From positions 7,638 to 71,637 of the forward strand of contig DATJVR010000034.1 of assembly GCA_035501735.1 (NCBI GenBank): a DNA stretch of 64,000 nt. Reading direction: 5' to 3'. Positions 25,131 to 49,829 of this stretch are shown here, piece by piece. The number at the start of each line of letters is the position of its first letter. Positions within the stretch are counted from its first letter, which is position 1. A program made the translations under genes and the position numbers. The stretch comes from Xanthobacteraceae bacterium. GTDB lineage: Bacteria; Pseudomonadota; Alphaproteobacteria; Rhizobiales; Xanthobacteraceae. A model generated the notes under the pieces. The model was not told the DNA's origin. It did no database searches and saw only the letters and a list, made by a program, of their open reading frames with translations.

Positions 25131-26993
25131 TTACTCCTGAAGCACGTAAGTTCCCGGCGCATCGCACAACGGCTTATAGCCGGCCTGCGGGGCACCAAGC
25201 CCGCTTGGGGCCATTGGCGCCCCCGAGCGCGCATCGAGCCAAGCGACCCATTCCGGCCACCAGGAGCCATCTTTCTGTGGCGCATTTGCCAAAAAAGCTT
25301 CCGGGTCAAGATAGTGATTGTCGGGCTTTTTCGTCATCGCTTGGAAACTGCGACCCACGTGGCCGGGCTCTGACACGATGCCAACATTGTGCCCGCCCGT
25401 GGTGAGCAGATATGTCACCTCCGTGTCGGTCTGAAGGTTGATCTTATAGGTCGAGCGCCATGGCGCGACATGATCGCGCATAGTGCCAACAGCGAAGATG
25501 GGCACTCGTATGTCCGAGAGCGCGATCGGTTTTTCTCCGACCAGAAACCTCCCTTCCGCAAGATCGTTGTCGAGAAAGAGTTTCCGTAGGTATTCCGAGT
25601 GCATGCGGTAAGGCATGCGCGTGGCATCGGCGTTCCACGCCATCAGATCGCTCATCGGCTGGCGTTCACCCATCAAATACTCGTGGACACCACGCGACCA
25701 GACGAGATCGTTCGAATGCAACATCTGGAACGTGCCGGCCATTTGCCGGCTGTCAAGAAAACCCTGCTCCCACATCATGTCTTCGAGAAAGGCAAGCTGA
25801 CTTTCATTGATGAAAAGCATCAACTCGCCGGCCTCCGTGAAATCGGTCTGCGAGGCAAACAATGTGACTGTCTTCATCCGGTCGTCGTCTTCGCGCGCCA
25901 TTGCGGCCGCCGCAATCGCAAGCAGTGTTCCACCGAGGCAATAGCCGACAGCATGCACCTTTTCATCGGGGACAATGCTGTTTATGGCTTCGAGCGCGGC
26001 CATGATGCCGAGTGTCCGATAGTCGTCCAAGCCGAGGTCGCGCTCCTCCGGACCGGGGTTCCTCCACGACATCATGAAAACCGAGTATCCCTGCTCGGTG
26101 AGATATTTCACGAGCGAATTCTGCGGCGAGAGATCGAGAATGTAGTATTTCATGATCCAGGCAGGAACGATGAGGATGGGTTCCGGCCGAACCTTTTCGG
26201 TCGCAGGTTCATACTGGATCAATTCAATGAGGCGGTTGCGATAAACCACTTTTCCCGGCGTGATCGCGACGTCGCGTCCGACGACGAATTTTTCGCTGCC
26301 GACCGGTTTTTTGCCGCTGATCGCGCGTTCCCAATCCTCCATCAGGTTTTGGAATCCGTTGACCAGATTCATTCCGCCCTTTTTGATGGTTTGCCGAAGA
26401 ACTTTGGGATTCGTGAGCACGAAATTCGACGGCGCCACCATGTCGAGGATTTGCCGCGACGCGAACTCGACCATGTTTTCGTGCTGTTTGGAGAGGCCGC
26501 GGATGCCGGTCGTGGCGTTGTGCCACCATTGCTGCTGCAGCAAGAAGGCTTGATGGATAAAGTTGTACGGCCATTTCTGCCATTCGTCGTCGGCGAAACG
26601 CTTATCAAATGGCAGCGGCTCGATGCAGCATTCGGTTTTACCACCCTGCATCACGCAGCGGCAGGCATAATTCGTGAAGCGAACCGCCTTGCGAACCGCC
26701 TTGTCCACCAATTGAACGCGTTTGCCCGGTGCGAAGGCAAGGTGGGTTGCCCAATCCAAATAGGCATGAGCCAACGCGGCCGGCGACACGCCGGCCGAAA
26801 ACCTGGCGAGCGCGGCATGCAGCGAGCGATCAGTAATGTCGGCAAACGCGGTAACAGCGTAGGAATCGCGAATGTCAGTCTGAGTGCCGGCGACCGCAGG
26901 CTCCCCGCCTTTGGAACGAAACAACGCAGGTGCAGATGCCTCCGAGGGTCTATCCCTCGTGCGACGAATCGAATGAAGTGCTGGTACGCTCAT
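25131..26993 (-). CDS. phaC: class I poly(3-hydroxyalkanoate) synthase
   Basis: 620 aa, with the lipase-like box GYCLGGT, PILIVPAWIMKYYILDL and a conserved C-terminal Asp/His region. Confidence 0.9.
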   Translation of the reverse strand: MSVPALHSIRRTRDRPSEASAPALFRSKGGEPAVAGTQTDIRDSYAVTAFADITDRSLHAALARFSAGVSPAALAHAYLDWATHLAFAPGKRVQLVDKAVRKAVRFTNYACRCVMQGGKTECCIEPLPFDKRFADDEWQKWPYNFIHQAFLLQQQWWHNATTGIRGLSKQHENMVEFASRQILDMVAPSNFVLTNPKVLRQTIKKGGMNLVNGFQNLMEDWERAISGKKPVGSEKFVVGRDVAITPGKVVYRNRLIELIQYEPATEKVRPEPILIVPAWIMKYYILDLSPQNSLVKYLTEQGYSVFMMSWRNPGPEERDLGLDDYRTLGIMAALEAINSIVPDEKVHAVGYCLGGTLLAIAAAAMAREDDDRMKTVTLFASQTDFTEAGELMLFINESQLAFLEDMMWEQGFLDSRQMAGTFQMLHSNDLVWSRGVHEYLMGERQPMSDLMAWNADATRMPYRMHSEYLRKLFLDNDLAEGRFLVGEKPIALSDIRVPIFAVGTMRDHVAPWRSTYKINLQTDTEVTYLLTTGGHNVGIVSEPGHVGRSFQAMTKKPDNHYLDPEAFLANAPQKDGSWWPEWVAWLDARSGAPMAPSGLGAPQAGYKPLCDAPGTYVLQE

Positions 26994-33192: not shown

Positions 33193-33840
33193 CTACCGCG
33201 CGCCCGGCATGCCGCTGCGATCCGGCCTGTTTCCCATCGGGCCGCCGTGCCTATGCATGCCCTGGTCGTGCATCATCCCGTTCCTCATCATTGCTGTTTG
33301 CACCGCCAGCATGCCGTCGCGCACGAGATCGCTGACTTCCGACGCATGTTGTTGGAGCGCGACCACCGTCTCCTGATCGTTCGATGTCTGGGTTACGATC
33401 ACGCCCTTTTCGATTGTTTCAGCTGCCGTTTTGATCTTGTCCTTGTTCCGGAATATCATGTGCAAAGCTTGGCTCTCGATCGGCAAACCGGGGTCGCGTT
33501 GGGTATTTACTCGTTCTCCCATGCCGGCGACGTGCTCCTTGATGAACAGAGCGATGCGCGGATCATCCGATTCCGTAACAGTTCGGATGCCGTCTGGCAG
33601 GTTGGTCACAGTGCGTCTGATGAGATCGTGGTTGATGATCAATTCATGGATGATGTCCATTTCTGACTTCGTCGCAGAATTGATGCCGGCACCCATCATG
33701 CCGTGACCCATGCCATGCATGAACATCATGCCGAAGCCGTGGCCGCGTTCCTGAGAGGAGGCCTTGAACGCATATGAGCCGACTGCAATTGCCAGAACAA
33801 TCGCGATTGCGATGCCGATCCGTTTGTTGCGCGGGTTCAT
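33193..33840 (-). CDS. periplasmic protein with Met/His-rich tracts at both ends (putative Cu(I)/soft-metal binding)
   Basis: Signal/anchor IGIAIAIVLAIAVGSYAF. The N-terminal tract is GHGFGMMFMHGMGHGMMGAG and the C-terminal tract is MMRNGMMHDQGMHRHGGPMG. The central domain of about 130 aa is not recognised. Confidence 0.6.
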   Translation of the reverse strand: MNPRNKRIGIAIAIVLAIAVGSYAFKASSQERGHGFGMMFMHGMGHGMMGAGINSATKSEMDIIHELIINHDLIRRTVTNLPDGIRTVTESDDPRIALFIKEHVAGMGERVNTQRDPGLPIESQALHMIFRNKDKIKTAAETIEKGVIVTQTSNDQETVVALQQHASEVSDLVRDGMLAVQTAMMRNGMMHDQGMHRHGGPMGNRPDRSGMPGAR

Positions 33841-33942: not shown

Positions 33943-34563
33943 TCACGTATGATCATGATCATACAGGCGTTTGAGGAGGCGGATTTTCCCTCCCTTGTTT
34001 CGTTGGATTTCGGCATCCTTCTGCATTTTCGCCAACGTCCGATAGAGCGCTTCGTGGGTCAGTCCGAGATGAGCGGCGAATTCCTTGAGCGAACCGGGCA
34101 GCACGACGCTCCGCGCGTCCGGACCGAGATTGACAGCAAAGTAATGACGAATGCGATCGCGGGCGGAATGGATGTTGCGCTGTTCGAGGCGTGTCCGCAG
34201 ATCCATGATTTGGCGAGCGAGCATGGCCATAAAAGCCTCAGCCGCCTTCGGATTGCGCTTGAACTCAACCAATATCGCGGCCTTCGGATAGAATCGAACC
34301 ACCGTTTTCGTGGTCGCAATCGCATCACAGTGATAGGTCGGCGAGAACAAAGAAGCTTCGGCGATCGTCTCACCGACAGAGGCCGAATGAAGAATGGCCT
34401 CGCGCCCTGAACGATCCACCCGTACCAGCCGCACTTTCCCGCTGATGACCTCGTACAGGCCAACGGTTCGACTGCCCTGTCGGAACAAGGTCTCGCCAGC
34501 CTCGAGGGGACGCTCAACGCCAGCACTCCGTACCACGGTGGGCAGCCAGTCTCGTTCGCTCAC
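33943..34563 (-). CDS. Crp/Fnr-family transcription regulator without an N-terminal Cys cluster
   Basis: cNMP-binding-like beta-roll (GETLFRQGSRTVGLYEVISGKVRL) and C-terminal HTH LKEFAAHLGLTHEALYRTLAKM, with the E and R of the FNR/FixK recognition helix conserved. GTG start. Confidence 0.8.
   Translation of the reverse strand: MSERDWLPTVVRSAGVERPLEAGETLFRQGSRTVGLYEVISGKVRLVRVDRSGREAILHSASVGETIAEASLFSPTYHCDAIATTKTVVRFYPKAAILVEFKRNPKAAEAFMAMLARQIMDLRTRLEQRNIHSARDRIRHYFAVNLGPDARSVVLPGSLKEFAAHLGLTHEALYRTLAKMQKDAEIQRNKGGKIRLLKRLYDHDHT
33947..33964. repeat. perfect 18-bp palindrome GTATGATCATGATCATAC
   Basis: Self-complementary. It overlaps the last codons (YDHDHT) of the Crp/Fnr gene, 107-124 nt upstream of the Met/His-rich protein gene. 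Confidence 0.3.
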
Positions 34564-36107: not shown

Positions 36108-36587
36108 ATGACGCATTACAGCCAACACGCTCATCTGAAATATTCGGCAACGCAACTATTTGATTTGGTCGCAGACGTCGGTAGCTATCCAGAGTTTGTG
36201 CCGTGGGTCATCGCGGCGCGCATTCAACGGCGACAGGAGAATACGGTCTGGGTGGATATGACGATGGGTACAAGTTTTCTGCGCAGGCGATTTTCAACGG
36301 TAGCGCAGCTTAATCGACCGCGTCGAATCGACATCAGCAGCCATGATCCCATGTTCGAGCGGTTTGAACAGCAGTGGAAATTCGAACCTTTGGACGATGG
36401 CGGCACGGATGTCGAATATCGTGTCGAATACGATTTTCGATCGCGCTTGCTGCAAATGTTGATCGGAACAACCGTGGCAGAACAGGCCGAAACAATGGTG
36501 GCTGCCTTCAGACACCGAGCGCAACGATTATACGGAGCTTCCCTATCGGCGTCGCCCGCTCGGCACGACAAGCCCGGTATTCGCTGA
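36108..36587 (+). CDS. SRPBCC-fold protein (RatA / COQ10-like quinone-binding family)
   Basis: YSATQLFDLVADVGSYPEFVPWV and EQQWKFEPLDDGGTDVEYRVEYDFRS are typical of the family. Confidence 0.75.
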   Translation: MTHYSQHAHLKYSATQLFDLVADVGSYPEFVPWVIAARIQRRQENTVWVDMTMGTSFLRRRFSTVAQLNRPRRIDISSHDPMFERFEQQWKFEPLDDGGTDVEYRVEYDFRSRLLQMLIGTTVAEQAETMVAAFRHRAQRLYGASLSASPARHDKPGIR

Positions 36588-36625
36588 TCGAAAACCGGCC
36601 TTTGCGGACTGGCGGCTGGTCAGGT

Positions 36626-37186
36626 TCAAGCGTGTTTTGCGTGTCCGCTGACGCAGACGGGGGACAATGCGCACCTGTCACAACGACCCGAAGGCATCGA
36701 GTCGGGATTCAGGCGTGGTTCCGCGCCGAGCAAGTACAAGGCATTGGCCATGATGCAATAGCCTGTTGCGGCAAACCAAACCATTGCGCCGCCGACGAAG
36801 ATCGTGAAGAGGGTCCACCATGGGCTATGCGCCAGCACCAAAACCGATGCGACGGAAATATTGATTCCGACCGCAAGGTAGATGCGTCGTTCCAGATACC
36901 AGCGATCCGTCTGCATGAAATACAAATTCCAGCGCATCGGGGTATGGTCCCCGAGCATTGGCGTAAAGCCGAACAGCCGCAGCAGATTGCCTATCGGACA
37001 GAATCCGGTGAGGGAGACATTGATAGAGATGAGCCCGGTCGCTGTTACGGCCAATATCCACAGCGGCTGTACGAGAAGCGCCAACGCCGTGCCGGTCAGC
37101 AGCACGATGCCCGCAATCAGCCAGACGCTCCGTTCGATATACCAGCGATGCGTCGGAACAATATACACGCCCGTGCGTACTGCCAT
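36626..37186 (-). CDS. membrane protein with two DUF2892 (YgaP-like) repeats
   Basis: The unit W-Y-(I/L)-ER-x6-G ... TG(F/Y)C(P/I) occurs twice, with hydrophobic hairpins. The C-terminus is Cys-rich (GRCDRCALSPVCVSG). Confidence 0.65.
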   Translation of the reverse strand: MAVRTGVYIVPTHRWYIERSVWLIAGIVLLTGTALALLVQPLWILAVTATGLISINVSLTGFCPIGNLLRLFGFTPMLGDHTPMRWNLYFMQTDRWYLERRIYLAVGINISVASVLVLAHSPWWTLFTIFVGGAMVWFAATGYCIMANALYLLGAEPRLNPDSMPSGRCDRCALSPVCVSGHAKHA

Positions 37187-37310
37187 GCTCGGCCTCAAGA
37201 AACTGGTGCAACAAAGCAGTCGATGCAATGTAGCAGATTGTCATTGCGTGGGCCAGAACGAAGGAAGCTTAAGCGCAGATTGTGCTGCCGCTGACGAGCG
37301 GTTTTTCGAC

Positions 37311-38186
37311 TCAAAGTAATAGTCCGAGACACAGGAAGACTGCGAACAGAAATTGAACCTGCACAGTCTGGACGAGAATTTGATTGAAAACCGGGCCGCG
37401 CGGCTCGTGGGCAAAGCGATAAATCACCAGGAGCGCCGGCGGCAATGTCAGCAGGGCCGGCCATACATGACCAGCAGACAGCGCATCACGCAGCGGCATG
37501 AGCAATGCAAAGGGAAGCAACATCAGCCCAGCAAAAATCCAACTCGTTGCCGTGGGCCCAGCCAGAATCGCCAACGTTTTTCGCCCGGCTCGCGCGTCGG
37601 TTTTGGCATCACGGTGATTGTTGACCAGCAGAACCGCACTCGTCAGCGAGCCGATCGCAATGCCAGTGATGATCGGGGCCGAATCAAGTTCCGCAGTACA
37701 GAGCCAATATGTGCCGCAGACCGCGCCCAAGCCGAAAAACGCCATGACAAATGCTTCTCCGAGCGGGGTATAGGCGATCGGCAGCGGGCCGCCCGTGTAG
37801 GCCCAACCGGACAGAATCGACAATAGTCCGAGGAGCAGGATCGGCCAGCCTCCGATGAATATGAGATAAAGTCCCATGAGCGCGGCGATGCCAAAGCAGA
37901 CGAGCGCGCCGAATTTGACCTCCTGGGCGCTCAATAAACCCGACGCTGTCACTCGCGGTGGTCCGAGGCGCTCTGGCCCGTCACCGCCGCGCACGGAATC
38001 AACCGCATCATTGTGCAGATTGGTTCCGATCTGAATGCAAACACTGGCGACAAACGCCGCCAAGACTGCCAGCCAAAGAATCCTTCTTTCCATCGCCCAG
38101 GCGACTGTGGTGCCGACTGCCACCGGTGCCGCCGAAAGAGTGAGCGTGCGTGGCCGCGCCCCCATGATCCAGGACGATAGATTCAT
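37311..38186 (-). CDS. menA: 1,4-dihydroxy-2-naphthoate polyprenyltransferase (UbiA superfamily, MenA type)
   Basis: ARPRTLTLSAAPV, NLHNDAVD and NNHRDAKTDARAGRKTL motifs. It aligns along its length with E. coli MenA as remembered. Confidence 0.8.
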   Translation of the reverse strand: MNLSSWIMGARPRTLTLSAAPVAVGTTVAWAMERRILWLAVLAAFVASVCIQIGTNLHNDAVDSVRGGDGPERLGPPRVTASGLLSAQEVKFGALVCFGIAALMGLYLIFIGGWPILLLGLLSILSGWAYTGGPLPIAYTPLGEAFVMAFFGLGAVCGTYWLCTAELDSAPIITGIAIGSLTSAVLLVNNHRDAKTDARAGRKTLAILAGPTATSWIFAGLMLLPFALLMPLRDALSAGHVWPALLTLPPALLVIYRFAHEPRGPVFNQILVQTVQVQFLFAVFLCLGLLL

Positions 38187-38378
38187 GACAATGAGTGGCG
38201 TGCAATCGACACGGAGGATTTACTCTGTGCAGGTATCCGTAAGATTACGAGGGATCGGTATCCTTCCCCGTTGAATCGACGTAAGTTAGCAGTACACTTG
38301 AAAGTGGCAACCATCGATGGAGGTGCGGTTGATTCGAGGTCGCCATGACAGGCGTTTTGCATCTTTAGGAATACCACG

Positions 38379-38957
38379 ATGCGGCAACGGCGACGGTTGG
38401 CATTTGCTGCGCCAGTGATAGCAGGCGCGATCGTTGGAGCGATTGCCATAATTGTGTCGGTTGAAGGCAATCGACATACTTCGACGGACTCATTTTGCAC
38501 TTCGTGCCACGCCATGGCTAGTCTGGCGGCGGATTCGAATTTCAAACAGTCCGTGCATCGCAGCAATTCCGCGGGCGTGCGGGCAAGCTGCGGGAATTGT
38601 CACATCCCAGCGACCAATTGGTTCGTCGAGACTTACACGCACGTCATCAAGGGTACCAAAGACGTGATTGCTCAAATTTCTCACAATTATGACGACGCCG
38701 CCGTTTGGGAAGCGCGGCGCAAGCAGCTTGCGGATTTTGTGCGCGAGGAAATGAGATCGCAGGACAGCGTCACCTGCCGTTCTTGTCATGATGCGACTGT
38801 CGTGCATCCGGCGAGCGAGCGTGGCCGTGCCGCGCATGCGCTCTTGCTGGAAGGCCGAATGACCTGCATCGATTGTCATTTCAACTTGGTCCACGCGCCG
38901 GTACCGCCCGGCACGAGTTTTATTCACGGGTCCGGTCTTGGCCGGCAAACACAATGA
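38379..38957 (+). CDS. NapC/NirT-family membrane-anchored tetraheme quinol dehydrogenase
   Basis: N-terminal TM helix and four CXXCH motifs (CTSCH, CGNCH, CRSCH, CIDCH) with family-typical spacing. Confidence 0.85.
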   Translation: MRQRRRLAFAAPVIAGAIVGAIAIIVSVEGNRHTSTDSFCTSCHAMASLAADSNFKQSVHRSNSAGVRASCGNCHIPATNWFVETYTHVIKGTKDVIAQISHNYDDAAVWEARRKQLADFVREEMRSQDSVTCRSCHDATVVHPASERGRAAHALLLEGRMTCIDCHFNLVHAPVPPGTSFIHGSGLGRQTQ

Positions 38958-38986
38958 GAAATTCGGATTAGTTTGGAGGTTTGACA

Positions 38987-40162
38987 ATGGAACCGTCAAA
39001 GCGAAACTGGGCGAAGACCGTCGTCCTTCTTGCGGCGGCCGGTTCATCATCCGCGCTTTCAATCGGACTGGTATTGCTGGTAAGCGGAACGCCGCTTGCC
39101 CAAGACAGTACTCCGGCAACTCCGACGGCGCCGCCTGGCTTCACCGCGAATACGGAAATTCCGTTCTATTCCGATTGGGCAAGTTCGCCTCATGCCAGCC
39201 GCGCAGCGGAAGCTTTCAATCATTGGAACAAGGAAGGCGTAATTCCGGTCGAATGCGCGAGATGTCACTCGACGCCGGGTTTTCTCGATTATTTGGGAGC
39301 GGATGGAAGCGCCATCGGCGTTGTCGACCATCCTGCACCGGTCGGTACCGTCATTACCTGCATCGCCTGTCACAACAACAAGACGCGCCAGTTGACGACG
39401 GTCGTGTTTCCGTCCGGGCTCAAGGTCGAGAACCTAGGCGCCAACGCGCGCTGTATGACATGTCATCAGGGCGTTGAATCGACTGTAAGCATGAACAAGG
39501 CGATTGCGGGTCTTGCCGAAGATACACCGGAACCCAAGATTCAGTTTCTCAATGTCCATTACCGCGCCGCGGGCGCTACTCTGATGGGCACTTTGGCGCG
39601 TGTCGCGTACGAATATCCGGGTAAGACTTACGCCGGACGTTTACAGCATCGCGAGCCGTATACGAGCTGTACGACCTGCCACGACCTGCACACCGTTGCC
39701 GTCAAGGTGTCCGACTGCGCCGCGTGTCACAAGGAAGTCAGCGACAAGGCATCGCTGCACCTTATCCGGGTCAGCAAGGTCGATTACGACGGCAACGGCA
39801 ATGCCAACGAAGGAATCGCGCAGGAGATCGATCATCTTCGCGAGCGTCTGTTGACCGCGATCATGGCTTACGCCAAGTCCGTCGCCGGTAAGCCGATCGT
39901 CTATAATCTCGATGTCTATCCGTATTTCTTCATCGATACGAACAACAACGGCGTCGCAGATAAGGACGAGATTCGATTTCCCAATAAGTACAATGCATGG
40001 ACGCCGCGCCTACTCAAAGCCGCATACAATTATCAGTTTGTGACGAAAGATCCCGGCGCGTTCGCTCACAACCCGACCTACACGCTGCAGATACTCTATG
40101 ACTCGATCAGCGATTTGGGAGTGAAAACTCCGGTCGATATGACGAAGGCCAAGCGTCCCTGA
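38987..40162 (+). CDS. periplasmic pentaheme c-type cytochrome of unknown function
   Basis: Signal peptide, a Pro/Thr linker and five CXXCH motifs (CARCH, CIACH, CMTCH, CTTCH, CAACH) in the first ~250 aa, followed by a heme-free C-terminal domain of about 140 aa. GGAGG lies 7 nt before the ATG at 38987. Confidence 0.8.
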   Translation: MEPSKRNWAKTVVLLAAAGSSSALSIGLVLLVSGTPLAQDSTPATPTAPPGFTANTEIPFYSDWASSPHASRAAEAFNHWNKEGVIPVECARCHSTPGFLDYLGADGSAIGVVDHPAPVGTVITCIACHNNKTRQLTTVVFPSGLKVENLGANARCMTCHQGVESTVSMNKAIAGLAEDTPEPKIQFLNVHYRAAGATLMGTLARVAYEYPGKTYAGRLQHREPYTSCTTCHDLHTVAVKVSDCAACHKEVSDKASLHLIRVSKVDYDGNGNANEGIAQEIDHLRERLLTAIMAYAKSVAGKPIVYNLDVYPYFFIDTNNNGVADKDEIRFPNKYNAWTPRLLKAAYNYQFVTKDPGAFAHNPTYTLQILYDSISDLGVKTPVDMTKAKRP

Positions 40163-41638: not shown

Positions 41639-42130
41639 CTACCTCACAAGACGCTCGCTGATTTGCTTTAGCGTCAATGGACGCAGCGCATCCCCGTCGA
41701 AATAAACAAAACGCAGCCGGCGTCGGCGGGCGACATGCGAGGCGGGAAGGGGATCGTATCGGAAGGTCTTGCCGCCAAGATGCGGCATGACCGCCCCCAC
41801 GTCGGCGATAAATTCGGTTTCCACCCGCAGCAGCGAAAACTTCCTGCCGTCTGCAAGATCGATCTCGAAGGGGACATGCGCGAGGCGCAGGAAGCTGGTC
41901 GGGTCGGTCGCGGCCGTGAAGCCCTCGATGAACGCCGCCTCGACGAGATCAACATCCGGCTCGGAGTGGTCATGATCCGCGTGCGGTGGCTCGCCGCGAT
42001 GCGGGGTCTGCCATTGCGCCACCTTTCCAGGCGGACGCTGATGGTTATGGCCGGCGCCGGCACTTTCGGCATGCGTGGAGCCATTGTGATGATGGTCGTC
42101 GTGATCGTGATGATAGTGCTTGCCGTGCAT
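41639..42130 (-). CDS. His-rich protein of unrecognised family (putative metallochaperone)
   Basis: 15 His in the first 55 residues (MHGKHYHHDHDDHHH...HNH...HADHDH), then a domain of about 105 aa that I do not recognise. The ATG at 42130 has a GAGG that overlaps the stop of the upstream gene. Confidence 0.6.
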   Translation of the reverse strand: MHGKHYHHDHDDHHHNGSTHAESAGAGHNHQRPPGKVAQWQTPHRGEPPHADHDHSEPDVDLVEAAFIEGFTAATDPTSFLRLAHVPFEIDLADGRKFSLLRVETEFIADVGAVMPHLGGKTFRYDPLPASHVARRRRLRFVYFDGDALRPLTLKQISERLVR

Positions 42131-42138
42131 GGCTTGCC

Positions 42139-43347
42139 TCAATAGCGCACAGGTTTGTCGATGATGGTTTTCTGGCTGCCGAGTTTGCCGTGCGCGACGA
42201 GCGAGCCGAGCGCCTCCACCACCACGCGAACGCCGAACAGCGCGGTGATATCCGACGTGTCATAGGGCGGCGAGACTTCGACCACTTCCAGCCCGCAGAT
42301 GCCCTCTGCGGCCACAAGGCCCAGCAGTTTCAGCGCCTCGCGCGGCAGGAAACCGCCGGGTTCCGGCCAGCCGGTGCCTGGCACGAAGCCGCAATCGACT
42401 GAATCCACGTCGAACGAAATATACACCGCATCGGCGTCCTTCCAGGCAAGCTCGAGCGCGATCTCGGCGGTTTTCTCAAGCCCGAACGATTCGATGTCGG
42501 AAATCGTCAGCACGTTGGTCTGGCGCTTACGCGCTTCCTGCACGCCGTAGCGCGGCACCTGCCAGCCGCCGATGCCGAGTTGCACCAGGTTCGTGGCCGA
42601 CACATTGGGCAAGTTCGTCGCCCAATACCAGGGCGTGGTGTGCATGCGTTCGTCGAGGTCCTTCTCCTGAATATCGATATGGCGATCGAAATGGACGATG
42701 CCGATGCGCTTGGACGTGCATTGCGCAATGCCACGCACGCAAGGAAAGCCGATCGAATGATCGCCGCCGAGCATGAGCGGCAGTGCGCCAGAAGAGAACA
42801 CGTGCGCGACACCACGTGAGATCTGGTCGAAACTCTTTTCCAGGTTGGCCGGAATCGTGAATACGTCGCCGGCATCGCACAGCGTCATCTGCTCGCGCAG
42901 GTCGACGCCGAGCTCGTAATTGTAGGGGGTGTACAGTGCCGAGATGCGACGAATTCCCTGCGGTCCAAAACGGGTGCCGGGTCGGTACGTCGTGCCGGAA
43001 TCAAACGGAATGCCAAGCACGGCGGCGTCATATTTGCCGACATCGCGGACATTTTCGACATAGGGTGCCTTGAGGAAGGTATTGATGCCGGCAAAATGCG
43101 GAAGCTCGCCGCGCGAAAATGTCGGGATCGATTTATCGGTGAGACTGTCCGCGCCGGGCAGTCCCATTGAGAGCGCCCATTGCTGCTCCTTGCGCCAGCT
43201 GGCGTCCGAGAGCTTTCCTTCGGCGTCGAGCGCCTTCCAGCCCTGGGTCGCCATCTTGTCGAAATCTGGATGGTGGCGCCGTTCGCGCCGCGGCGGCGGG
43301 AACAGGCCGGCTCCGCGTGAGCGGCGTGTCAAATGGTTCGCCATCAT
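42139..43347 (-). CDS. long-form arginase/agmatinase-fold ureohydrolase (guanidine- or guanidino-compound hydrolase candidate)
   Basis: LGGDHSIGF, HFDRHIDIQ and SFDVDSVDCGFVPGTGWPEPGG metal-ligand motifs. There is an N-terminal extension of about 80 aa relative to ~300-aa agmatinases. An ATGA overlap links it to the upstream gene. Confidence 0.8.
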   Translation of the reverse strand: MMANHLTRRSRGAGLFPPPRRERRHHPDFDKMATQGWKALDAEGKLSDASWRKEQQWALSMGLPGADSLTDKSIPTFSRGELPHFAGINTFLKAPYVENVRDVGKYDAAVLGIPFDSGTTYRPGTRFGPQGIRRISALYTPYNYELGVDLREQMTLCDAGDVFTIPANLEKSFDQISRGVAHVFSSGALPLMLGGDHSIGFPCVRGIAQCTSKRIGIVHFDRHIDIQEKDLDERMHTTPWYWATNLPNVSATNLVQLGIGGWQVPRYGVQEARKRQTNVLTISDIESFGLEKTAEIALELAWKDADAVYISFDVDSVDCGFVPGTGWPEPGGFLPREALKLLGLVAAEGICGLEVVEVSPPYDTSDITALFGVRVVVEALGSLVAHGKLGSQKTIIDKPVRY

Positions 43348-43799
43348 GACATCGCTCCTTGTGTCAGCCGCTCCTCGGCGATGAAAGGATGCACCTGCGG
43401 GATCAGAGATGCCACGAGATGGATCTTCCCGGATATCACACCGCGACGGGATGTCATCTCGTCAGCGATTATTTGCAGCTTGCGGGCGGCGCCCTGCACC
43501 AGAATGACTTCCATAGTCTGATTGTGCATCAGATGCACGTGAAGCGAACTGATCACTTCGTCGATGTAGCGAACCTGCAGGTCGGCCAATTGCTTTTGCA
43601 GGCCGGCCACCGAATTATTGTAGAACAGCGCAATGATGCCGACCATCACGTCCTTGCCTCGGTCGTGGCGGTGCCCGACGACGAACTGATGCAGCATGTC
43701 ATTGATGGCCTGCGAGCGGGTTTCAAAACCGCGCTCCGATATCATCTCATCAAGGTCGTGCAGCAGATTCCTAGGCAACGATATACTAATACGACTCAA
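43344..43799 (-). CDS. NikR-family (ribbon-helix-helix plus ACT-like domain) regulator with non-canonical metal site
   Basis: SRISISLPRNLLHDLDEMISERGFETRSQAINDML aligns to the NikR RHH, and SLHVHLMHNQTMEV aligns to the Ni-site strand. A TTG at 43799, 28 nt after the GS-like stop, gives a NikR-sized protein. Longer alternatives start at 43919 (ATG) and 43937 (TTG) but overlap the upstream gene. Confidence 0.65.
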   Translation of the reverse strand: MSRISISLPRNLLHDLDEMISERGFETRSQAINDMLHQFVVGHRHDRGKDVMVGIIALFYNNSVAGLQKQLADLQVRYIDEVISSLHVHLMHNQTMEVILVQGAARKLQIIADEMTSRRGVISGKIHLVASLIPQVHPFIAEERLTQGAMS

Positions 43800-43827
43800 T
43801 GGCCGGCGGGCTCCGGCGTGTGCGTGC

Positions 43828-45201
43828 CTAGAAGAGATGGCTGTACCGTTCGATTTCCCATGGGCTGATCGCAAGATGGTAGTCCTCCCATTCCTGTGTT
43901 TTATATTTGACGAACTCATCGCGCAGCTCCCTCCCAAGCGTCGCCTCTACCAGGGGATCGGCGGCAAAGGCGTGGACCGCTTCCTGTAGCGTTTGAGGCA
44001 GAAAATCAATATTACGCGCTCGCCGCTCGTTTTCTGAAATGGTGTAGAGGTTGTCCTCGTTCGGCTCGCGCGGATCGATTTTCTCGCGGATTCCTTCAAG
44101 GCCAGCCGCGAGCGCAAGCGTTGCCGCGAGGTAAGGATTGACTGCGCCATCGGCATTGCGGGATTCGCAACGGCCGCCACCGGCCGGGACCCGCACCGAA
44201 TTGGTCCGATTGTTCGAGCCGTAGGAATTGAACACCGGCGCCCAGCTGAAATAGCTCATGGCGCCCTGTCGGACGAGACGCTTGTAACTGTTGACCGTAG
44301 GCGCGAAAGCGGCGCAGAGCGCGCGCCCGTGGCGCAGGATGCCGCCGATGAAGTGGTAGCCAAGCTCGGTCAGCCCGAGACCGCGGCCATCCTTCGAAGG
44401 GTCGCAGGCAAAGGCATTGCGGCCGGTCTTGAGATCGTACAGCGACATATTGAAATGCGCGCCGGTGCCGGTCTTGTGCGCGAACGGCTTGGGCATCATG
44501 GTCGCGAGCAGGCCTTCTTCTTTGGCGAAATGCTTGGTCATGTAGCGAAAGAAGATGAAGCGGTCGCAGGTCATCAGAGCATCGGCGTAACGGAAATCGA
44601 ATTCGTACTGGCCGTTGGCGTCCTCGTGATCGAACGAATAAAGATCCCAGCCGAGTTCGTTGATGCACGTTGCGACCTTGTCGAGCCATTTGAAGTTGTC
44701 GAGAAAGGGGCGCAGGTCGTAACAGGGCTTCGTGAGCTTGTCGTCCGGGTTCGGGACCGAAAGCTTGCCGTCGCCATTTCGTTTGAGCACGAAAACTTCG
44801 CATTCGATGCCGAGATGGAATCCGAACCCCATGTTTGCCGCTCGCGCGAGCACGTTCTTCAGGGCCACGCGCGTGTTGAGCGGATAGGGTTTGCCCTGGA
44901 AGGCATTGTCTGCGGGCATCCAGGCAAGTTTCGGCTCCCACGGCAATTGGATGATGTGATCGAGGTCCGGAACGGACGTGAGCTCGTCCTCGTTCGGCGC
45001 CTGTCCGAGACCATCGAGCGCGTATCCGGTGTAGCGCTCCGAACCATGCGCCATGTGCATCAGATGGTCGAGCGGAACGATCTTGGCTTTCGGCACGCCA
45101 TGAATGTCGACATAGGCGCCGATGCAATATTTGACGCCTTTGGCGCGCAGTTGCTCCTGCGTCTGTTTGATTTTTTCATCGGAATACATCTGACAGTCCA
45201 T
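43828..45201 (-). CDS. glnT: type III (GlnT-like) glutamine synthetase-family ligase
   Basis: GS beta-grasp and catalytic-domain motifs are present ([18 protein letters not shown]...[19 protein letters not shown]...[13 protein letters not shown]). The size and sequence resemble rhizobial GSIII/GmaS-type proteins. The substrate is not assignable. Confidence 0.7.
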
Positions 45202-45229
45202 CGCTCGCACACACCTTCTGCCGGCCGGC

Positions 45230-46159
45230 CTATTCAACGTTGTCGTTGACGTCGGCAAGGCGGACGACCATCGAATAGCTCTCCGCGTCTTCGTCCTCCG
45301 GCTTCGACTGGTGAATCAGCTCTTCCAGTCGCGCCTTGGTGGCGAGAAATTCCGGCGCAAGGAATTGCGCGGAGGTGCGCGGCCGGGGAACTGGAACCTC
45401 GATCATTTCCTGCACCTGGCCGGGATGGGCCGAAAGCACCAGAATGCGGTCGGCGAGAAAAATCGCCTCTTCGAGATCATGGGTGATGAAAACGATGGTG
45501 ATGTCGATCTTGCGCCAGATCTCCAGCAGGTGCGCCTGCATCCGGCAGCGGGTCTGCGCGTCGAGCGCGCCGAAGGGCTCATCCATCAGCAAAATGCGAG
45601 GCTGATTGGCGAGCGCGCGCACGATCGCGACACGCTGCTTCATGCCGCCCGACAGCTGGTGCGGGTAGGCGTCGGAAAATTTTTGCAGGCCGACAAGATC
45701 GAGCCATTGCATCGCCTGTTGCACGGCCTCGTCCTTGCCTTTGCCGTTGATTTCGAGACCAAACATCACGTTCTTTTTCACCGTGAGCCAGGGAAACAGC
45801 GTGTAGCCCTGAAACACCATGCCGCGATCGCTGCCGGGTTCGGTGACCGGCTTGCCCTGCAGCAGAACCTCGCCGCCGGAATTTTCCTCAAGGCCGGCGA
45901 TGATGCGCGCAAGCGTGGATTTCCCGCAGCCCGACGGTCCGATCACGCAAAGGAATTCGCGCCGGTGCGTGGTGAAATTGATGTTGTTGAGAGCAACGGT
46001 CGAACGCTCGCCGGTGTCGAAGATTTTGCTTAGACCCCGCACTTCCAGGATGACCTCGCGCGCCTTCAGGCGCTCAAAGCGCGCCCGGACGGCAGCGCTC
46101 TGATGCAGATAGGACGGGATCGGCTGGGGCGCGACGATTTTGTTCATCTGGCCACCCAT
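45230..46159 (-). CDS. ABC transporter ATP-binding protein (NitT/TauT family)
   Basis: Walker [10 protein letters not shown], signature [15 protein letters not shown], Walker [12 protein letters not shown]. Confidence 0.85.
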
Positions 46160-46162
46160 CGC

Positions 46163-47131
46163 TCAAGCCGTCTTCACGAGTGACCGGTCCCAGGGAAAGA
46201 GGCGCCTGCCGACCAGCGCCAGCATCATATCGGTGCCGAGTCCGATGATGCCGATGATGATGATCGCGGCGTAGACGTTGGCGAAATGCTGGTAGCGGGC
46301 CTGCTGGGTGATGAACCAGGTGATGCCGGACATCGTGCCGATCAGTTCGGCCACGATCAGATAGGTCCAAGCCCAGCCGAGCAGGATGCGCTGGTCGCGA
46401 TAGAGGTCCGGGAGTATGCCGGGTACGACGACGCGGAACAGAAGCTTGGTGTTCCGTGTCCCCAGTGTCAGCGCAGCCTCGACCAGCGCCACGTCGAGTT
46501 TCCGGGTGGTATTGGCAATGATCAGGACCTGCTGAAACAAGGTACCGATGACTATGATGGTGATCTTCGGCCCATCGTAGATGCCGAGGATCGCGACCGC
46601 GAGCGCTCCGAATGCCGGCGCCGGCAGATAACGGAAGAATTCGACAAAAGGTTCGTTGATGCGTGAGAAAATCGCATAGGTGCCGCAAAGGACGCCGAGC
46701 GGCACGCCGATGATCGACGAAATTACAAATCCCCAGAATATGATCTGAATACTATGCCAAAGACTTTGGTGCAGCCACTGGCCGTTTTGTGCAAGCGGCG
46801 GCTCCCTGAACGATTCATAGAGAGCAATGGCGACTTCGTGCGGGGCAGGAAGGTAGATCGGATTGGCCGGGTCGCCTTGCGGCGGCGCCCGATTTTCATT
46901 CCGTGCATCCTCGACCTCGGTCTCGAATGCCGCGTAGTTCATCCGCATGCCCGGCTGCAGAAATTCGACCGAGCCGGGATTCGTGATTCTGACCTGCGGG
47001 TGCCAGACAAATGGGACATAGCTGACGATGCACCAGACAAGGACCGGCAGCACGAACGAGAGCCAGCCGGCCACAAGCCTGGCGTGCGGTGGAAGCGGTC
47101 GCAGGACCTGGAACAACCGGATCCACTTCAT
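46163..47131 (-). CDS. ABC transporter permease (NitT/TauT family) with extended N-terminal periplasmic segment
   Basis: The EAA-like loop region EAALTLGTRNTKLLFRVVVPGILP is present. Confidence 0.8.
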   Translation of the reverse strand: MKWIRLFQVLRPLPPHARLVAGWLSFVLPVLVWCIVSYVPFVWHPQVRITNPGSVEFLQPGMRMNYAAFETEVEDARNENRAPPQGDPANPIYLPAPHEVAIALYESFREPPLAQNGQWLHQSLWHSIQIIFWGFVISSIIGVPLGVLCGTYAIFSRINEPFVEFFRYLPAPAFGALAVAILGIYDGPKITIIVIGTLFQQVLIIANTTRKLDVALVEAALTLGTRNTKLLFRVVVPGILPDLYRDQRILLGWAWTYLIVAELIGTMSGITWFITQQARYQHFANVYAAIIIIGIIGLGTDMMLALVGRRLFPWDRSLVKTA

Positions 47132-47154
47132 CGCAATCTACACCCGTCCGCGCG

Positions 47155-48138
47155 CTACTGCGCGTTGATGAGCGATGCGTCGATGTAGCTGTCTATCTTT
47201 TGCGACTCCTTGTAGACCTCGTTTTTCACATTGAAATCGTTGGCGATCTTGGAAGAACCGTAGAGTGAGGTGAGGCCTTCGCCTTTCTTGAACACCTTCT
47301 TGCCCTCGGCAACGTCGATCAGCTTAGTGCCCTTCAACAGCGGCTTATAGGCTTCCGGCGTAAGGCCGACGCGCGCCGCCATGATTTTCACGGCATCGTC
47401 TTGAGTCTTTGGATCGTTGATGTAATGCACGACTCGATCCCAGACCTTGATCACCTTTATCCACTCGGCCTTGCGGGCATTCAGACTTGCGGGTGTCACG
47501 GCGAGGACGTCATAGATAAGGCCGGGCGCCGAGGCGGAGGTGTAAATCGGCTTCGAGCCCGCGAGCGCTTTCATGGCTTCGCCGGATATCGGCTGCCATG
47601 CACCGATTGCATCGACCTGACCTGACGCAAGAACCTGTGGCGTTTCATTGGTCTTTGCGTTCACCAGCGTGACGTCCTTTTCCTTCATTCCGGCTTTTTC
47701 CATGGCGTGCAGCAGCAACAGGTGCTCGACCAGGCCAATTTCGATGCCGACCTTCTTGCCCTTCAGGTCCTTGATGCTTTTGATGCCGGGCTTGGCGACG
47801 ATCATGTCGTTGCCGTTGGAATAATCGGTGAGCATGATCATGATGCCCTTGCCGCCGCCCGCACCGGTGACCAGTGTGTCGCCGTTGGTCATGAGATTGC
47901 CGTCAAGTTTGCCGGCAGTGAACGCATCCATGGACGCCGAGTAGTCGAACCATTGGAATGTCACGTCGACACCCGCCTCCTTGAACCATCCCTTGTTGAT
48001 GGCGACTTCCCAGGCGACCCAGCCTGGCCAATCGCTGTAGCCAACCGTGAGCGGTGCAGCCAAAGCCGCATTTGCCCCGGATAACGCGAGCGAGAGTGCC
48101 AGTGCAGCAAGCGACGCAAATTTTCTCTTGAGACTCAT
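47155..48138 (-). CDS. ABC transporter periplasmic substrate-binding protein (NitT/TauT, NMT1-like fold)
   Basis: Signal peptide MSLKRKFASLAALALSLALSGANAALA, and LTVGYSDWPGWVAWEVA typical of the family. The ATG at 48138 has a GGAGG SD. Confidence 0.8.
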   Translation of the reverse strand: MSLKRKFASLAALALSLALSGANAALAAPLTVGYSDWPGWVAWEVAINKGWFKEAGVDVTFQWFDYSASMDAFTAGKLDGNLMTNGDTLVTGAGGGKGIMIMLTDYSNGNDMIVAKPGIKSIKDLKGKKVGIEIGLVEHLLLLHAMEKAGMKEKDVTLVNAKTNETPQVLASGQVDAIGAWQPISGEAMKALAGSKPIYTSASAPGLIYDVLAVTPASLNARKAEWIKVIKVWDRVVHYINDPKTQDDAVKIMAARVGLTPEAYKPLLKGTKLIDVAEGKKVFKKGEGLTSLYGSSKIANDFNVKNEVYKESQKIDSYIDASLINAQ

Positions 48139-48152
48139 GACCACCTCCATTG

Positions 48153-48201: not shown

Positions 48202-48441
48202 GACAGGCGGCCTATCAGCGTTCGTGAAAGGCTGCGGCAAGTGATTGCGAGGGCAGTGTTTTGGCGGAGAGAGGGGTCGTCGCTACGACTGCTCAGCGAG
48301 GATCGGAAGCACAATTTATGCTCGCAGCAAGCGGCAGGCTGCCCAAAGTCTAAGCAGTGCCTTGATTTGCGAAGGCTGTGTGACAGTCCTCTGACAGAAA
48401 AAAGGGACAATTAAGTCAATAAGTTGGTCCACGCCGCGAAT

Positions 48442-48456
48442 TGGCACCCTTCTTGC
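48442..48456 (+). promoter_or_regulatory. sigma-54 (-24/-12) promoter for urtA
   Basis: TGGCACCCTTCTTGC is a full match to TGGCAC-N5-TTGC. It lies about 60 nt upstream of the urtA ATG. Confidence 0.7.
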
Positions 48457-48515
48457 GAAGCACCAGACGCGAACGGCATCCAGCCGCTACGCGTGCGTCA
48501 ACAGAGGGCTTTGCA

Positions 48516-49829
48516 ATGTTCAATCCCATATCCGCGGTCGCGCGACCGCATGCCCGCCGCTGGCTTGCCGCTACGGCGGGGTTAGCGTTGGGTCTGGCAA
48601 TGGCAATGCCGGCGAAGGCTCAGGACACGATCAAAATCGGAATCCTGCACTCGCTTTCCGGCACCATGGCAATCAGCGAAACCACGTTGAAAGACGTGAT
48701 GCTGATGCTCATCGACGAACAGAACAAAAAAGGAGGGCTGCTCGGGAAAAAGCTCGAAGCGGTTGTCGTCGATCCCGCCTCAAACTGGCCTTTGTTTGCC
48801 GAAAAGGCGCGCGAGCTTATCTCCAAGGACAAGGTTGCCGTCGTATTCGGCTGCTGGACGTCGGTTTCGCGCAAATCGGTGCTGCCGGTGTTCAAGGAAC
48901 TCAACTCGATCCTGTTCTATCCGGTGCAGTATGAGGGCGAGGAGAGCGAGAAAAACGTCTTTTACACGGGTGCCGCGCCAAACCAGCAAGCCATACCCGC
49001 GGTCGATTACCTCATGAAAGAGGAAAAGGTGGTGCGCTGGGTATTGGAAGGCACCGACTATGTGTATCCGCGAACGACCAACAAAATCCTTGAAGCCTAT
49101 TTGAAGAGCAAAGGCGTCAAGGATTCGGACATCTCCATCAACTACACGCCATTCGGTCACTCCGACTGGCAAACCCGAGTCGCGGCGATCAAGAAATTTG
49201 GTTCAGAAGGCCGCAAGACGGCGGTGGTCTCGACCATCAACGGTGACGCCAACGTGCCTTTCTACAAGGAACTCGGCAACCAAGGCGTGAAGGCCAAGGA
49301 CATCCCCGTGGTCGCGTTCTCGGTCGGCGAAGAAGAGCTCGCCGGCATCGACACCAAACCGCTGGTCGGACACCTTGCTGCCTGGAACTATTTCGAGTCG
49401 ATCAATACTCCGGCGAACAAGGAGTTCATCGAAAAGTGGCACGCCTTTACCAAGAATCCGAAGCGCGTCACCAATGACCCGATGGAAGCCCATGTGATCG
49501 GCTTCGCCATGTGGGTGAAGGCGGTGGAGAAGGTGAAGACGACTGACGCCACCAAGGTGATAGATGCTCTCCCCGGCATTACCGCCCCCAATCTGACCGG
49601 CGGGACTTCAACCATGCTGCCCAATCATCACATCACCAAGCCAGTCTTCATCGGCGAAGTGAAGGCAGATGGTCAGTTCAACATCGTGTGGAAGACGCCG
49701 GGGCTGGTCCCGGGTGACGCATGGTCGAAGGAACTGCCCGATTCCAAGAACCTGATTGGCGACTGGGTAACGCTTAAGTGCGGCAACTACGACACTGTGA
49801 AAAAGAAGTGTCTCGGCAGCGGTACCTGA
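48516..49829 (+). CDS. urtA: urea ABC transporter substrate-binding protein
   Basis: Signal peptide then QDTIKIGILHSLSGTMAISE and GCWTSVSRKSVLPV, typical of UrtA. The ATG at 48516 is used because the listed ORF start at 48441 overlaps the promoter. Confidence 0.9.
   Translation: MFNPISAVARPHARRWLAATAGLALGLAMAMPAKAQDTIKIGILHSLSGTMAISETTLKDVMLMLIDEQNKKGGLLGKKLEAVVVDPASNWPLFAEKARELISKDKVAVVFGCWTSVSRKSVLPVFKELNSILFYPVQYEGEESEKNVFYTGAAPNQQAIPAVDYLMKEEKVVRWVLEGTDYVYPRTTNKILEAYLKSKGVKDSDISINYTPFGHSDWQTRVAAIKKFGSEGRKTAVVSTINGDANVPFYKELGNQGVKAKDIPVVAFSVGEEELAGIDTKPLVGHLAAWNYFESINTPANKEFIEKWHAFTKNPKRVTNDPMEAHVIGFAMWVKAVEKVKTTDATKVIDALPGITAPNLTGGTSTMLPNHHITKPVFIGEVKADGQFNIVWKTPGLVPGDAWSKELPDSKNLIGDWVTLKCGNYDTVKKKCLGSGT

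Follow-up and report, generated by a model that had tools for sequence, protein, structure and literature searches.

Many anaerobic respirations start from a quinol dehydrogenase of the NapC/CymA type, which is normally accompanied by a recognisable reductase. What does such a dehydrogenase feed when no reductase is encoded beside it? This question is raised by positions 36,108 to 40,162 of a 64,000-nucleotide stretch of a soil metagenome contig (ENA ERZ27256514 k141_800088; JGI Ga0335081_10000376) from an uncultured alphaproteobacterium of the Xanthobacteraceae, the whole of which is here referred to as the window. At this locus, a NapC/NirT-type tetraheme gene is followed by a gene for a pentaheme c-type cytochrome, here referred to as Penta, and the pair is transcribed divergently from a gene for a MenA-type prenyltransferase. 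We describe here that the NapC-Penta pair recurs together with MenA-family genes in related genomes and that Penta belongs to a large, modular multiheme family. We tentatively favor, with somewhat less than even confidence, the reading that the locus encodes a quinol-oxidising periplasmic electron-export branch in which, at low oxygen, quinol would be oxidised by NapC, with a MenA-supplied naphthoquinone as its substrate or cofactor, and the electrons would pass via Penta to an acceptor outside the locus.

Gene content of the locus

A sequence-only reading of the window had assigned five genes to this locus, and the open reading frame (ORF) list and family scans recovered all of them, with the identities and positions proposed:

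36108-36587, plus strand: SRPBCC (COQ10/RatA-like), putative lipid- or quinone-binding protein, 159 aa (PF03364)
36626-37228, minus strand: double DUF2892/YgaP-like membrane protein (PF11127, two stretches)
37311-38186, minus strand: MenA-family (1,4-dihydroxy-2-naphthoate [DHNA]) polyprenyltransferase of lineage A, 291 aa (TIGR00751, NF004751 and PF01040)
38187-38378: divergent intergenic region between menA and napC, 192 bp
38379-38957, plus strand: NapC/NirT/CymA-type membrane-anchored tetraheme quinol dehydrogenase, 192 aa (PF03264)
38981-40162, plus strand: pentaheme c-type cytochrome Penta, 393 aa from a TTG start or 391 aa from the ATG at 38987

The napC and penta genes share a strand and are separated by 24-30 bp, and the 192-bp intergenic region presumably holds the promoters of both units. 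The first unit, consisting of the SRPBCC, double DUF2892 and MenA proteins, would prenylate a naphthoate-type head group and handle the resulting lipid quinone. The second is a two-gene operon, in which NapC would be the inner-membrane quinol dehydrogenase and Penta would be tethered to the membrane in the periplasm.

The NapC protein matches PF03264 with 145.5 bits (threshold, 24.1), with residues 5-174 covering positions 4-171 of the 174-position model. Its N-terminal transmembrane helix corresponds to the hydrophobic stretch LAFAAPVIAGAIVGAIAIIVSV, and it has four CXXCH motifs: CTSCH (the first, as CTSCHAM), CGNCH, CRSCH and CIDCH. The protein is below every specific equivalog cut-off in NCBIfam, with 118.7 bits versus 478 for TorC, 98.2 versus 310.6 for the NapC/NirT subfamily, 88 versus 349 for the NapC equivalog and 49 versus 134 for NrfH.

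The earlier view that the locus has no recognisable terminal reductase holds for the entire window, in which no gene for a molybdoenzyme, NrfA, Nir, Tor or a similar enzyme was found, and it extends to the related loci described below, where no known terminal reductase is consistently present beside NapC-Penta. Orthologous loci thus do not always include a known reductase; for the window, a reductase may nevertheless be displaced and encoded elsewhere.

Association of NapC-Penta with MenA

The neighbourhoods of 80 genome loci encoding Penta homologs (numbered with the prefix L) were compared. Neighbours were scored by tblastn, because ORF picking based on GC content at third codon positions mis-called genes in frameshifted nanopore metagenome-assembled genomes (MAGs). 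In 29 of these loci the Penta protein is at least 65% identical to that of the window; all 29 are Hyphomicrobiales/Xanthobacteraceae-type MAGs, including Rhodoplanes piscinae, Pseudolabrys, Rhodopseudomonas and Bauldia. A napC gene is located upstream of penta in 28 of the 29 and directly upstream in 27, with menA lying between the two in L017, and penta and a napC-like gene are also paired in three more distant Rhodospirillales loci. A MenA-family gene is found within about 1.4 kb in 22 of the 28 close NapC-Penta loci, and a gene for an SRPBCC paralog is adjacent in six of the close loci. In all, five gene orders link MenA with NapC-Penta:

menA divergent from napC-penta: window, L005, L096 and L025
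menA-napC-penta on the same strand, between molybdenum cofactor (Moco) genes and a formate dehydrogenase (FDH) operon: about 16 loci, which are closely related Danish soil MAGs and hence few independent observations, and L095
NMT1-like-ubiD-SRPBCC-menA-napC-penta: L003, L006 and L097
SRPBCC-menA-napC-penta without ubiD: L019
napC-menA-penta: L017

The MenA proteins encoded in these loci fall into three lineages (A to C) that are only 24-33% identical, whereas in the same loci the Penta proteins are 53-75% and the NapC proteins 58-88% identical. The difference between MenA and Penta identities points to independent recruitment of MenA. Lineages A and C as well as the lineage-B proteins of L015 and L006 pass the TIGR00751 cut-off (scores of 140, 121 and 113 for the lineage-B and lineage-C proteins of related loci), whereas the lineage-B protein of L025 is below it (87.7 versus 102.15). 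Since the arrangement recurs over many genomes in differing gene orders, it goes beyond chance. Unless the genes are functionally connected, it is difficult to account for the placement of different MenA lineages, in different orders, beside one and the same pair of cytochromes. The linkage of MenA and SRPBCC genes with NapC-pentaheme genes noticed in the window is thus a conserved one. We found no description of a NapC, pentaheme and MenA module, or of DUF2892 in connection with menaquinone, in the literature searched, which included a survey of quinol oxidases in extracellular electron transfer.

It is conceivable that the two units are unrelated neighbours, with the MenA unit making a prenylated aromatic lipid for general use, NapC-Penta drawing on the ubiquinol pool and the adjacency reflecting shared regulation or island structure. 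The NapC protein of Escherichia coli is able to use ubiquinol, which is compatible with this view, as are the divergent transcription of the two units in the window, the six close NapC-Penta loci with no MenA gene nearby and the MenA unit found without NapC-Penta in L092 and L093. Nevertheless, we consider this explanation unlikely, as all three MenA lineages are found beside NapC-Penta and the five orders include the same-strand, tightly spaced arrangements menA-napC-penta and napC-menA-penta.

The MenA unit and its putative quinone

The window MenA protein passes the TIGR00751 cut-off (169.3 bits versus 102.15) and barely exceeds that of NF004751 (265.9 versus 264), and both Asp-rich motifs of the UbiA superfamily are present in its translation, NLHNDAVDS and NNHRDAKTDARAG (also given as NNHRDAKTDARAGRKT). 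More than 100 lineage-A homologs with 67-76% identity were found in soil metagenomes, most of them named DHNA prenyltransferase. No isolate carrying a lineage-A MenA or a close Penta homolog was found among these sequences, which come from MAGs and metagenomes only. Among close homologs, a double DUF2892 gene comes after the lineage-A gene in every case, and an SRPBCC gene is often present as well. Compared with classical MenA proteins, such as those of E. coli and, among the Hyphomicrobiales, Blastochloris, the window protein is alike in its family matches and motifs; its lineage differs in having no men genes nearby, in these constant neighbours and in being found only in uncultured Xanthobacteraceae.

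The double DUF2892 protein (public gene call: start at 37186, 186 aa) matches PF11127 with 32.4 bits (threshold, 25.3) in two stretches, which represent two copies in one protein. It has four predicted transmembrane helices and a Cys-rich C-terminal tail, RCDRCALSPVCVSGH. Homologs with 62-81% identity are encoded directly after lineage-A menA in L005, L091, L092, L093 and L096, and five Cys residues are kept in these proteins and that of the window, in the motifs GFC(P/I), G(Y/F)C and the C-terminal RCxxCxxSPVC; the window protein reads GFCP and GYC at the first two. As a purely speculative aside, a Cys-rich protein with four transmembrane helices beside a quinone prenyltransferase recalls thiol:quinone oxidoreductases of the DsbB/VKOR type. 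The SRPBCC protein, for which a longer public gene call starts about 90 bp upstream, matches PF03364 with 94.9 bits (threshold, 23.4) as well as PF10604 and is below the RatA equivalog cut-off (84.3 versus 258 bits). Paralogs adjoin the MenA unit, the NapC-Penta unit or both in L003, L004, L005, L006, L013, L019, L093, L096 and L097.

The sequence-only reading had treated the five genes as one module. Their association is indeed repeated across genomes, but MenA and the double DUF2892 protein, with or without SRPBCC, also occur without NapC-Penta (L092 and L093); hence the region is better described as two units that are often but not obligatorily associated.

In agreement with the earlier observation that the window holds no other genes for naphthoquinone synthesis, no men or mqn gene was found among the approximately 40 window ORFs scanned, a set that leaves aside a few small ORFs. 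Likewise, none is located beside MenA in L025, L017, L091-L093 or L095-L097, where the neighbours are CoxSLM-like, FixI/HemN-like, FDH, Moco and unrelated genes. Streptococci are known to have orphan MenA enzymes, for which scavenged DHNA serves as the substrate. In L003, L006 and L097, the genes ahead of SRPBCC-menA-napC-penta encode a periplasmic-binding-fold protein of the NMT1/SsuA type and a decarboxylase of the UbiD family. The score of this decarboxylase is above the TIGR00148 cut-off and below that for the futalosine enzyme MqnL, which hints that loci of this type prenylate and decarboxylate a different aromatic acid. A naphthoquinone branch had been considered unusual for relatives of this organism, and this view is borne out by the rarity of the Men pathway in Alphaproteobacteria (PMC11707229), although a full pathway is present in Blastochloris (PMC11707229).

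The pentaheme protein Penta

The five heme motifs of Penta, all CXXCH, begin at C92, C127, C158, C230 and C246, with spacings of 35, 31, 72 and 16 residues, and the last approximately 140 residues have no heme motif. The protein consists of an N-terminal hydrophobic helix, a Pro/Ala/Thr-rich linker of low model confidence, a heme-binding core and a C-terminal helical domain, in which two loops are seen, one canonical and EF-hand-like (D319-x-N-x-N-G-x-x-D-x-x-E330) and the other of the form DxDGxG. Among the Pfam models only those of generic class III cytochromes are matched above threshold (PF14522, 41.6 versus 24.8 bits; PF02085, 30 versus 22.9 bits). All 74 Penta relatives scanned match these c7/c3 models, which denote a generic class rather than a function. 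Matches to two more specific models are below threshold: NrfA (PF02335) with 16 versus 24.1 bits, over residues 83-155 and model positions 81-156, and the pentaheme domain of MtrC/MtrF (PF22113) with 17.8 versus 30 bits. Weak matches to the two models are seen in 36 (best E value, 3.6e-5) and 55 (best E value, 1.2e-10), respectively, of the 74 relatives.

Penta had been noted only as the partner of NapC, and this description proved too narrow. More than 1,800 homologs were found, all unnamed or called "cytochrome c3 family," and an exhaustive profile search placed 469 clusters (50% identity) in the family at an E value of ≤1e-30. The approximately 390-aa forms found in Alphaproteobacteria are 66-82% identical, and approximately 670-aa decaheme forms in Chloroflexi/Anaerolineae consist of two fused Penta copies. 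Many members contain two to four tandem copies and reach up to 1,400 aa, indicating that the unit of approximately 330 residues, present once in the window protein, is a repeatable building block.

Neither single-sequence nor profile searches identified a significant sequence relative of Penta in the PDB; matches to nonaheme c3, zinc ribbons of ribosomal protein S14 and NrfA (E value, 0.1) were at chance level and were discarded. An AlphaFold2 model was obtained with a predicted local distance difference test score (pLDDT) of 86.3 and a predicted template modeling (TM) score of 0.80, and the C-terminal domain modeled alone reached a pLDDT of 92.9. Foldseek found no PDB fold relative at an E value of ≤0.001 for the full model or for the C-terminal domain alone. 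The best matches of the full model, all weak (E values of ≥0.013; TM scores of 0.30-0.39), were the S-layer undecaheme cytochrome of Carboxydothermus, OcwA, octaheme nitrite reductase (ONR) and NrfA. NrfA chains among them gave E values of 0.37-7 and TM scores of 0.30-0.38, with root mean square deviations of 9-12 Å.

Across divergent single-module members, exactly five His residues outside the heme motifs are invariant, H71, H193, H223, H237 and H363; H81 and H285 vary. Five invariant distal-type His residues for five hemes fit an electron transfer protein with bis-His coordination throughout, and to judge from this conservation all five hemes are probably coordinated in this way. An hhalign comparison of the family profile with PpcA (sequence checked against 1OS6) aligned only the last two heme motifs and was unusable for assigning distal ligands. 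The C-terminal region had been described as a separate, heme-free domain, a view that has to be revised: H363, which probably serves one heme as distal ligand, lies within it, and the domain would hence belong to the heme core.

Alternatively, terminal reduction might be catalysed by Penta itself, as an enzyme distantly related to NrfA, octaheme tetrathionate reductase (OTR) or OcwA, with NapC in the role of NrfH. In this case, the relatives would copy the Wolinella-type chain from formate via menaquinone and NrfH to NrfA, with nitrite, hydroxylamine, NO, sulfite or a similar compound as the substrate. The best Foldseek matches, over 330-390 columns, all belong to the NrfA/ONR/OcwA/S-layer group, and the weak PF02335 matches are roughly co-linear with the model. 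The C-terminal domain with its Ca-type loops is highly conserved, the heme spacing is one that we take to resemble that of NrfA, the order napC-penta equals nrfH-nrfA with FDH and MenA next door in relatives, and in Rhodobacterales penta stands alone. On the other side, every Foldseek match has an E value above 0.01 with a low TM score, and the NrfA model is missed. Penta has no CXXCK motif, and its five invariant His residues suffice for five bis-His hemes. Furthermore, two- to fourfold tandem repeats are typical of electron conduits, and the window NapC scores higher against the TorC and NapC models than against that of NrfH. In L076, moreover, Penta is encoded in an operon with a genuine OTR-family enzyme, which suggests a role as a donor. 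An enzymatic Penta is therefore doubtful in our view. Based on the five invariant His residues, its modularity, the lack of a significant PDB relative and the weak matches to OcwA, S-layer cytochrome and NrfA, we read Penta as an electron relay or a promiscuous terminal reductase and not as an NrfA-type enzyme.

Formate dehydrogenase, cytochrome b and other recurring neighbours

In 16 loci, an operon for an FDH-N-like (FdnGHI-like) enzyme runs convergently into penta and is accompanied by fdhD, mobA, mobB and moeA. Its alpha subunit is below the FDH equivalog cut-offs, and its gamma subunit is above that of TIGR01583. An FdnI-like cytochrome b gene overlaps the penta stop codon in L005, a locus with the layout of the window, FdnG and FdnH being absent there. 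In L096, the FdnI-like gene ends an SRPBCC-menA-DUF2892 operon that is divergent from napC-penta. L091 encodes a 520-aa fusion (positions 6401-7963) of a periplasmic domain with five CXXCH motifs and an FdnI-like cytochrome b; the gene lies between an FDH-N-like operon and menA followed by the double DUF2892 gene, that is, in the position taken elsewhere by NapC-Penta, and looks like a non-orthologous replacement of the pair. No gene for FDH, FdnI-like cytochrome b or UbiD was found in the window.

These neighbours bear on two further explanations. Electrons might flow in the reverse direction, with Penta collecting them from periplasmic oxidation and NapC reducing the quinone pool, as proposed for the c554/cM552 system of Nitrosomonas; formate (via FDH), Fe(II), reduced humics and hydroxylamine-type substrates are candidate donors. 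NapC/NirT-family proteins such as cM552 are able to act as quinone reductases, no terminal reductase is encoded nearby, and a periplasmic FDH-like dehydrogenase adjoins the pair in 16 loci. However, FdnGHI-type enzymes carry their own quinone-reducing cytochrome b and do not need NapC. In addition, a quinone reductase would be better served by high-potential ubiquinone, which leaves the conserved MenA linkage unexplained, and the genomic context is that of a low-oxygen regulon. Reversed flow thus seems improbable.

Alternatively, NapC, Penta and the FdnI-like cytochrome b might form an energy-conserving menaquinol:ubiquinone redox loop in the relatives, of which the window would hold a reduced version. 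Naphthoquinol would be oxidised at the periplasmic face, the electrons would pass through two b hemes and ubiquinone would be reduced at the cytoplasmic face. The arrangements in L005 and L096 and the c::b fusion in L091 are in line with such a loop, but a cytochrome b of this type is absent from the window, and in most loci it is the gamma subunit of the adjacent FDH. We regard this explanation, which is pure inference and for which we found no biochemical precedent, as very unlikely.

A gene of the OTR family, which passes the TIGR04315 cut-off, is found near penta in only two distant loci. In L076 (positions 7989-11074; Hoeflea olei), the two genes form an operon with a 4-bp overlap at the OTR start, and in L041 (positions 6026-9014) they are divergent. 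In the Rhodobacterales (L054, L068, L073, L075, L077, L081 and others), penta lies between an Na+-NQR operon with divergent nqrA and a gene for an Na+/H+ exchanger; such exchangers flank it also in L022 and L051. The Chloroflexi decaheme loci (L061, positions 2120-11902, and similarly L047-L079) encode a histidine kinase with a LuxR-type response regulator, a DmsE-like multiheme protein, NrfC-like and NrfD/QrcD-like subunits and a 571-aa NapC-like protein, and some add proteins with 7 to 16 hemes.

Low-oxygen context

Perfect boxes of the FixK/FNR type (TTGA-N6-TCAA, in most cases TTGAT-N4-ATCAA) occur nine times in the window, where 0.9 would be expected:

20092, 24050, 25104, 27551, 31893, 32149, 32919, 33067: in the lower-GC region at 20-33 kb, upstream of genes for a transporter, polyhydroxyalkanoate (PHA) synthase, Mg-ATPase, DASS symporter and CBS/BON proteins
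59329: directly upstream of fixNOQP (59420-62868)

These boxes look like a dense low-oxygen regulon. In L017, the module adjoins genes for a P-type ATPase (E1-E2 ATPase with an HMA domain) and a radical-SAM protein, which we read as FixI-like and HemN-like. Together, the boxes, fixNOQP and these L017 neighbours suggest, by context, that the module may be expressed at low oxygen. Within the menA/napC intergenic region, the only sigma-70-like match overlaps the menA start, promoter and terminator matches are not more numerous than in shuffled sequences, and alignment with the equivalent region of L005 revealed no shared motif.

Proposed electron-export branch

In the electron-export reading that we favor, NapC would oxidise quinol at the periplasmic face at low oxygen, the MenA unit supplying a low-potential naphthoquinone of the kind characteristically used, or bound as a cofactor, by NapC-family enzymes. 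Electrons would be transferred to Penta, acting as a relay or as a non-specific terminal reductase, and from there to an acceptor with no gene next to penta. This could be an oxidant in soluble or chelated form or else an enzyme whose gene lies elsewhere in the genome. In many relatives, the input side may be encoded next door, by the FDH-N-type enzyme or the FdnI-like cytochrome b, with formate as the likely input. The gene identities, the operon layout, the conserved association, the modularity of Penta and its pattern of His conservation were observed, whereas we infer the direction of electron flow, the type of quinone, the low-oxygen expression and the acceptor.

Several observations weigh against this electron-export branch. 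On the quinone side, the cultured relatives Pseudolabrys FHR47 and Rhodoplanes Z2-YC6860 have neither MenA nor the Men pathway (PMC11707229, Table S1), and genes for making the DHNA head group were not seen among the window ORFs scanned. The association with MenA is incomplete in both directions, given the six close NapC-Penta loci with no MenA gene nearby and the MenA-DUF2892(-SRPBCC) unit far from any NapC-Penta in L092 and L093, and the FDH-type loci count for little as independent cases. With regard to Penta, the heme ligation is read from conservation, and a substrate site could exist in the C-terminal domain, which is strongly conserved and combines Ca-type loops with a number of Tyr, Gln and Lys residues that do not vary. 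Furthermore, in most Rhodobacterales loci Penta is encoded alone, with no cytochrome or quinol dehydrogenase near, and such isolation is seen more typically with enzymes than with relays. Finally, no FixK/FNR box was found in the module's own intergenic regions with up to two mismatches allowed.

A bolder version is that these soil Xanthobacteraceae, although of a ubiquinone lineage, have a naphthoquinone reserved for one purpose, namely to be the cofactor or mini-pool of a NapC that feeds Penta. An orphan MenA would make it, assisted by the Cys-rich DUF2892 protein with its four transmembrane helices and by SRPBCC as a chaperone. The head groups would possibly be scavenged or made in an unconventional way and, where an FdnI-like cytochrome b is present, the system would run as an energy-conserving naphthoquinol:ubiquinone redox loop or as formate-driven periplasmic electron export. 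Taken as a whole, this combination appears rather unlikely to us.

Comparison with known systems

The system is of a known kind, in which a quinol dehydrogenase such as CymA or NrfH works together with a multiheme protein. It resembles Shewanella CymA, which feeds STC, FccA and MtrA, in that a membrane-bound tetraheme quinol dehydrogenase serves multiheme proteins with no catalytic cofactor of their own. To our knowledge, menA is not located beside the dehydrogenase gene in Shewanella, as it is here. The partner also differs, as Penta belongs to a new family of pentaheme proteins, is tethered to the membrane and has an extra helical domain with Ca-type loops; moreover, no porin-cytochrome or flavocytochrome is encoded nearby, and the host lineage is ubiquinone based. 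CymA requires menaquinone-7 as a specific bound cofactor (PMC3340143), and this dependence parallels the conserved MenA linkage described here.

The NrfH-NrfA systems of Wolinella and Desulfovibrio, which operate with FDH and menaquinone, are similar in that the gene for a small NapC-family tetraheme protein is followed by one for a pentaheme protein. NrfA is among the weak fold matches of Penta, and FDH-N-like genes and MenA are next door in the relatives. In contrast to NrfA, however, Penta is below the Pfam threshold, has no CXXCK motif and five invariant distal-type His residues and is approximately 100 residues shorter, and the window NapC is closer to the NapC and TorC models than to NrfH. 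The top Foldseek matches, OcwA of Thermincola and the S-layer undecaheme cytochrome of Carboxydothermus ferrireducens (PDB accession numbers 6i5b and 6qvm; Foldseek probability of 0.91-0.92, E values of 0.013-0.1, TM scores of 0.33-0.39 and 14% identity), have different heme numbers. They are promiscuous terminal reductases, a role that the fused decahemes in the multiheme-rich clusters of Chloroflexi would fit, whereas alphaproteobacterial Penta is periplasmic and membrane tethered and not located on the cell surface. Pentaheme domains II and IV of MtrC/OmcA (PF22113) are likewise repeatable five-heme building blocks; Penta differs from these proteins in having no β-barrel domains I and III and in having a C-terminal domain with no PDB relative. 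Finally, the c554/cM552 pair of Nitrosomonas is alike in combining a NapC/NirT tetraheme with a small soluble multiheme protein and no adjacent reductase, but c554 is a tetraheme protein with no sequence relationship to Penta, and the pair is encoded with hydroxylamine oxidoreductase, directs electrons into ubiquinone and has no MenA.

Other features of the window

Flanking genes for major facilitator superfamily transporters, a Crp-family regulator and a Met/His-rich protein were considered as parts of the module and rejected, as they are not conserved in related loci. The following features were noted beyond the module:

13174-17515: two tandem acetoacetate decarboxylase-family paralogs with a short-chain dehydrogenase/reductase and a patatin-like lipase
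25131-26993: class I PHA synthase, beyond the acetoacetate decarboxylase-family paralogs
33193-33840, minus strand: Met/His-rich periplasmic protein of 215 aa (GHGFGMMFMHGMGHGMMG...) with no Pfam or NCBIfam family
33943-34563: Crp/FixK-family regulator without an FNR-type Cys cluster, adjoining the Met/His-rich protein
41639-48150, minus strand: His-rich 167-aa protein of no family, arginase-family ureohydrolase (402 aa, below the agmatinase cut-offs), NikR, type III glutamine synthetase and ABC transporter
48441-54983: urea-type periplasmic binding protein and ABC transporter genes, then UreD

The cluster at 41639-48150 may be a nickel-dependent ureohydrolase cluster of the guanidine hydrolase type and, together with the urea and UreD genes that follow, points to a nitrogen-scavenging neighbourhood.

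Significance

In summary, we identified a widespread family of multiheme partner proteins, described neither as a family nor for its modularity in the literature searched, that extends from Alphaproteobacteria to Chloroflexi, where its members are fused into decahemes. Additionally, a NapC-type dehydrogenase was found repeatedly beside a MenA-type prenyltransferase in a class thought to have lost menaquinone, and the module is carried by soil Xanthobacteraceae that are abundant but uncultured. Should MenA and NapC-Penta be functionally linked, the double DUF2892 protein would gain its first functional context, and soils would have a candidate system, open to testing, by which electrons from formate are disposed of in the periplasm or outside the cell. 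It would also mean that ubiquinone-based organisms can add a small low-potential quinone branch for a single dehydrogenase.

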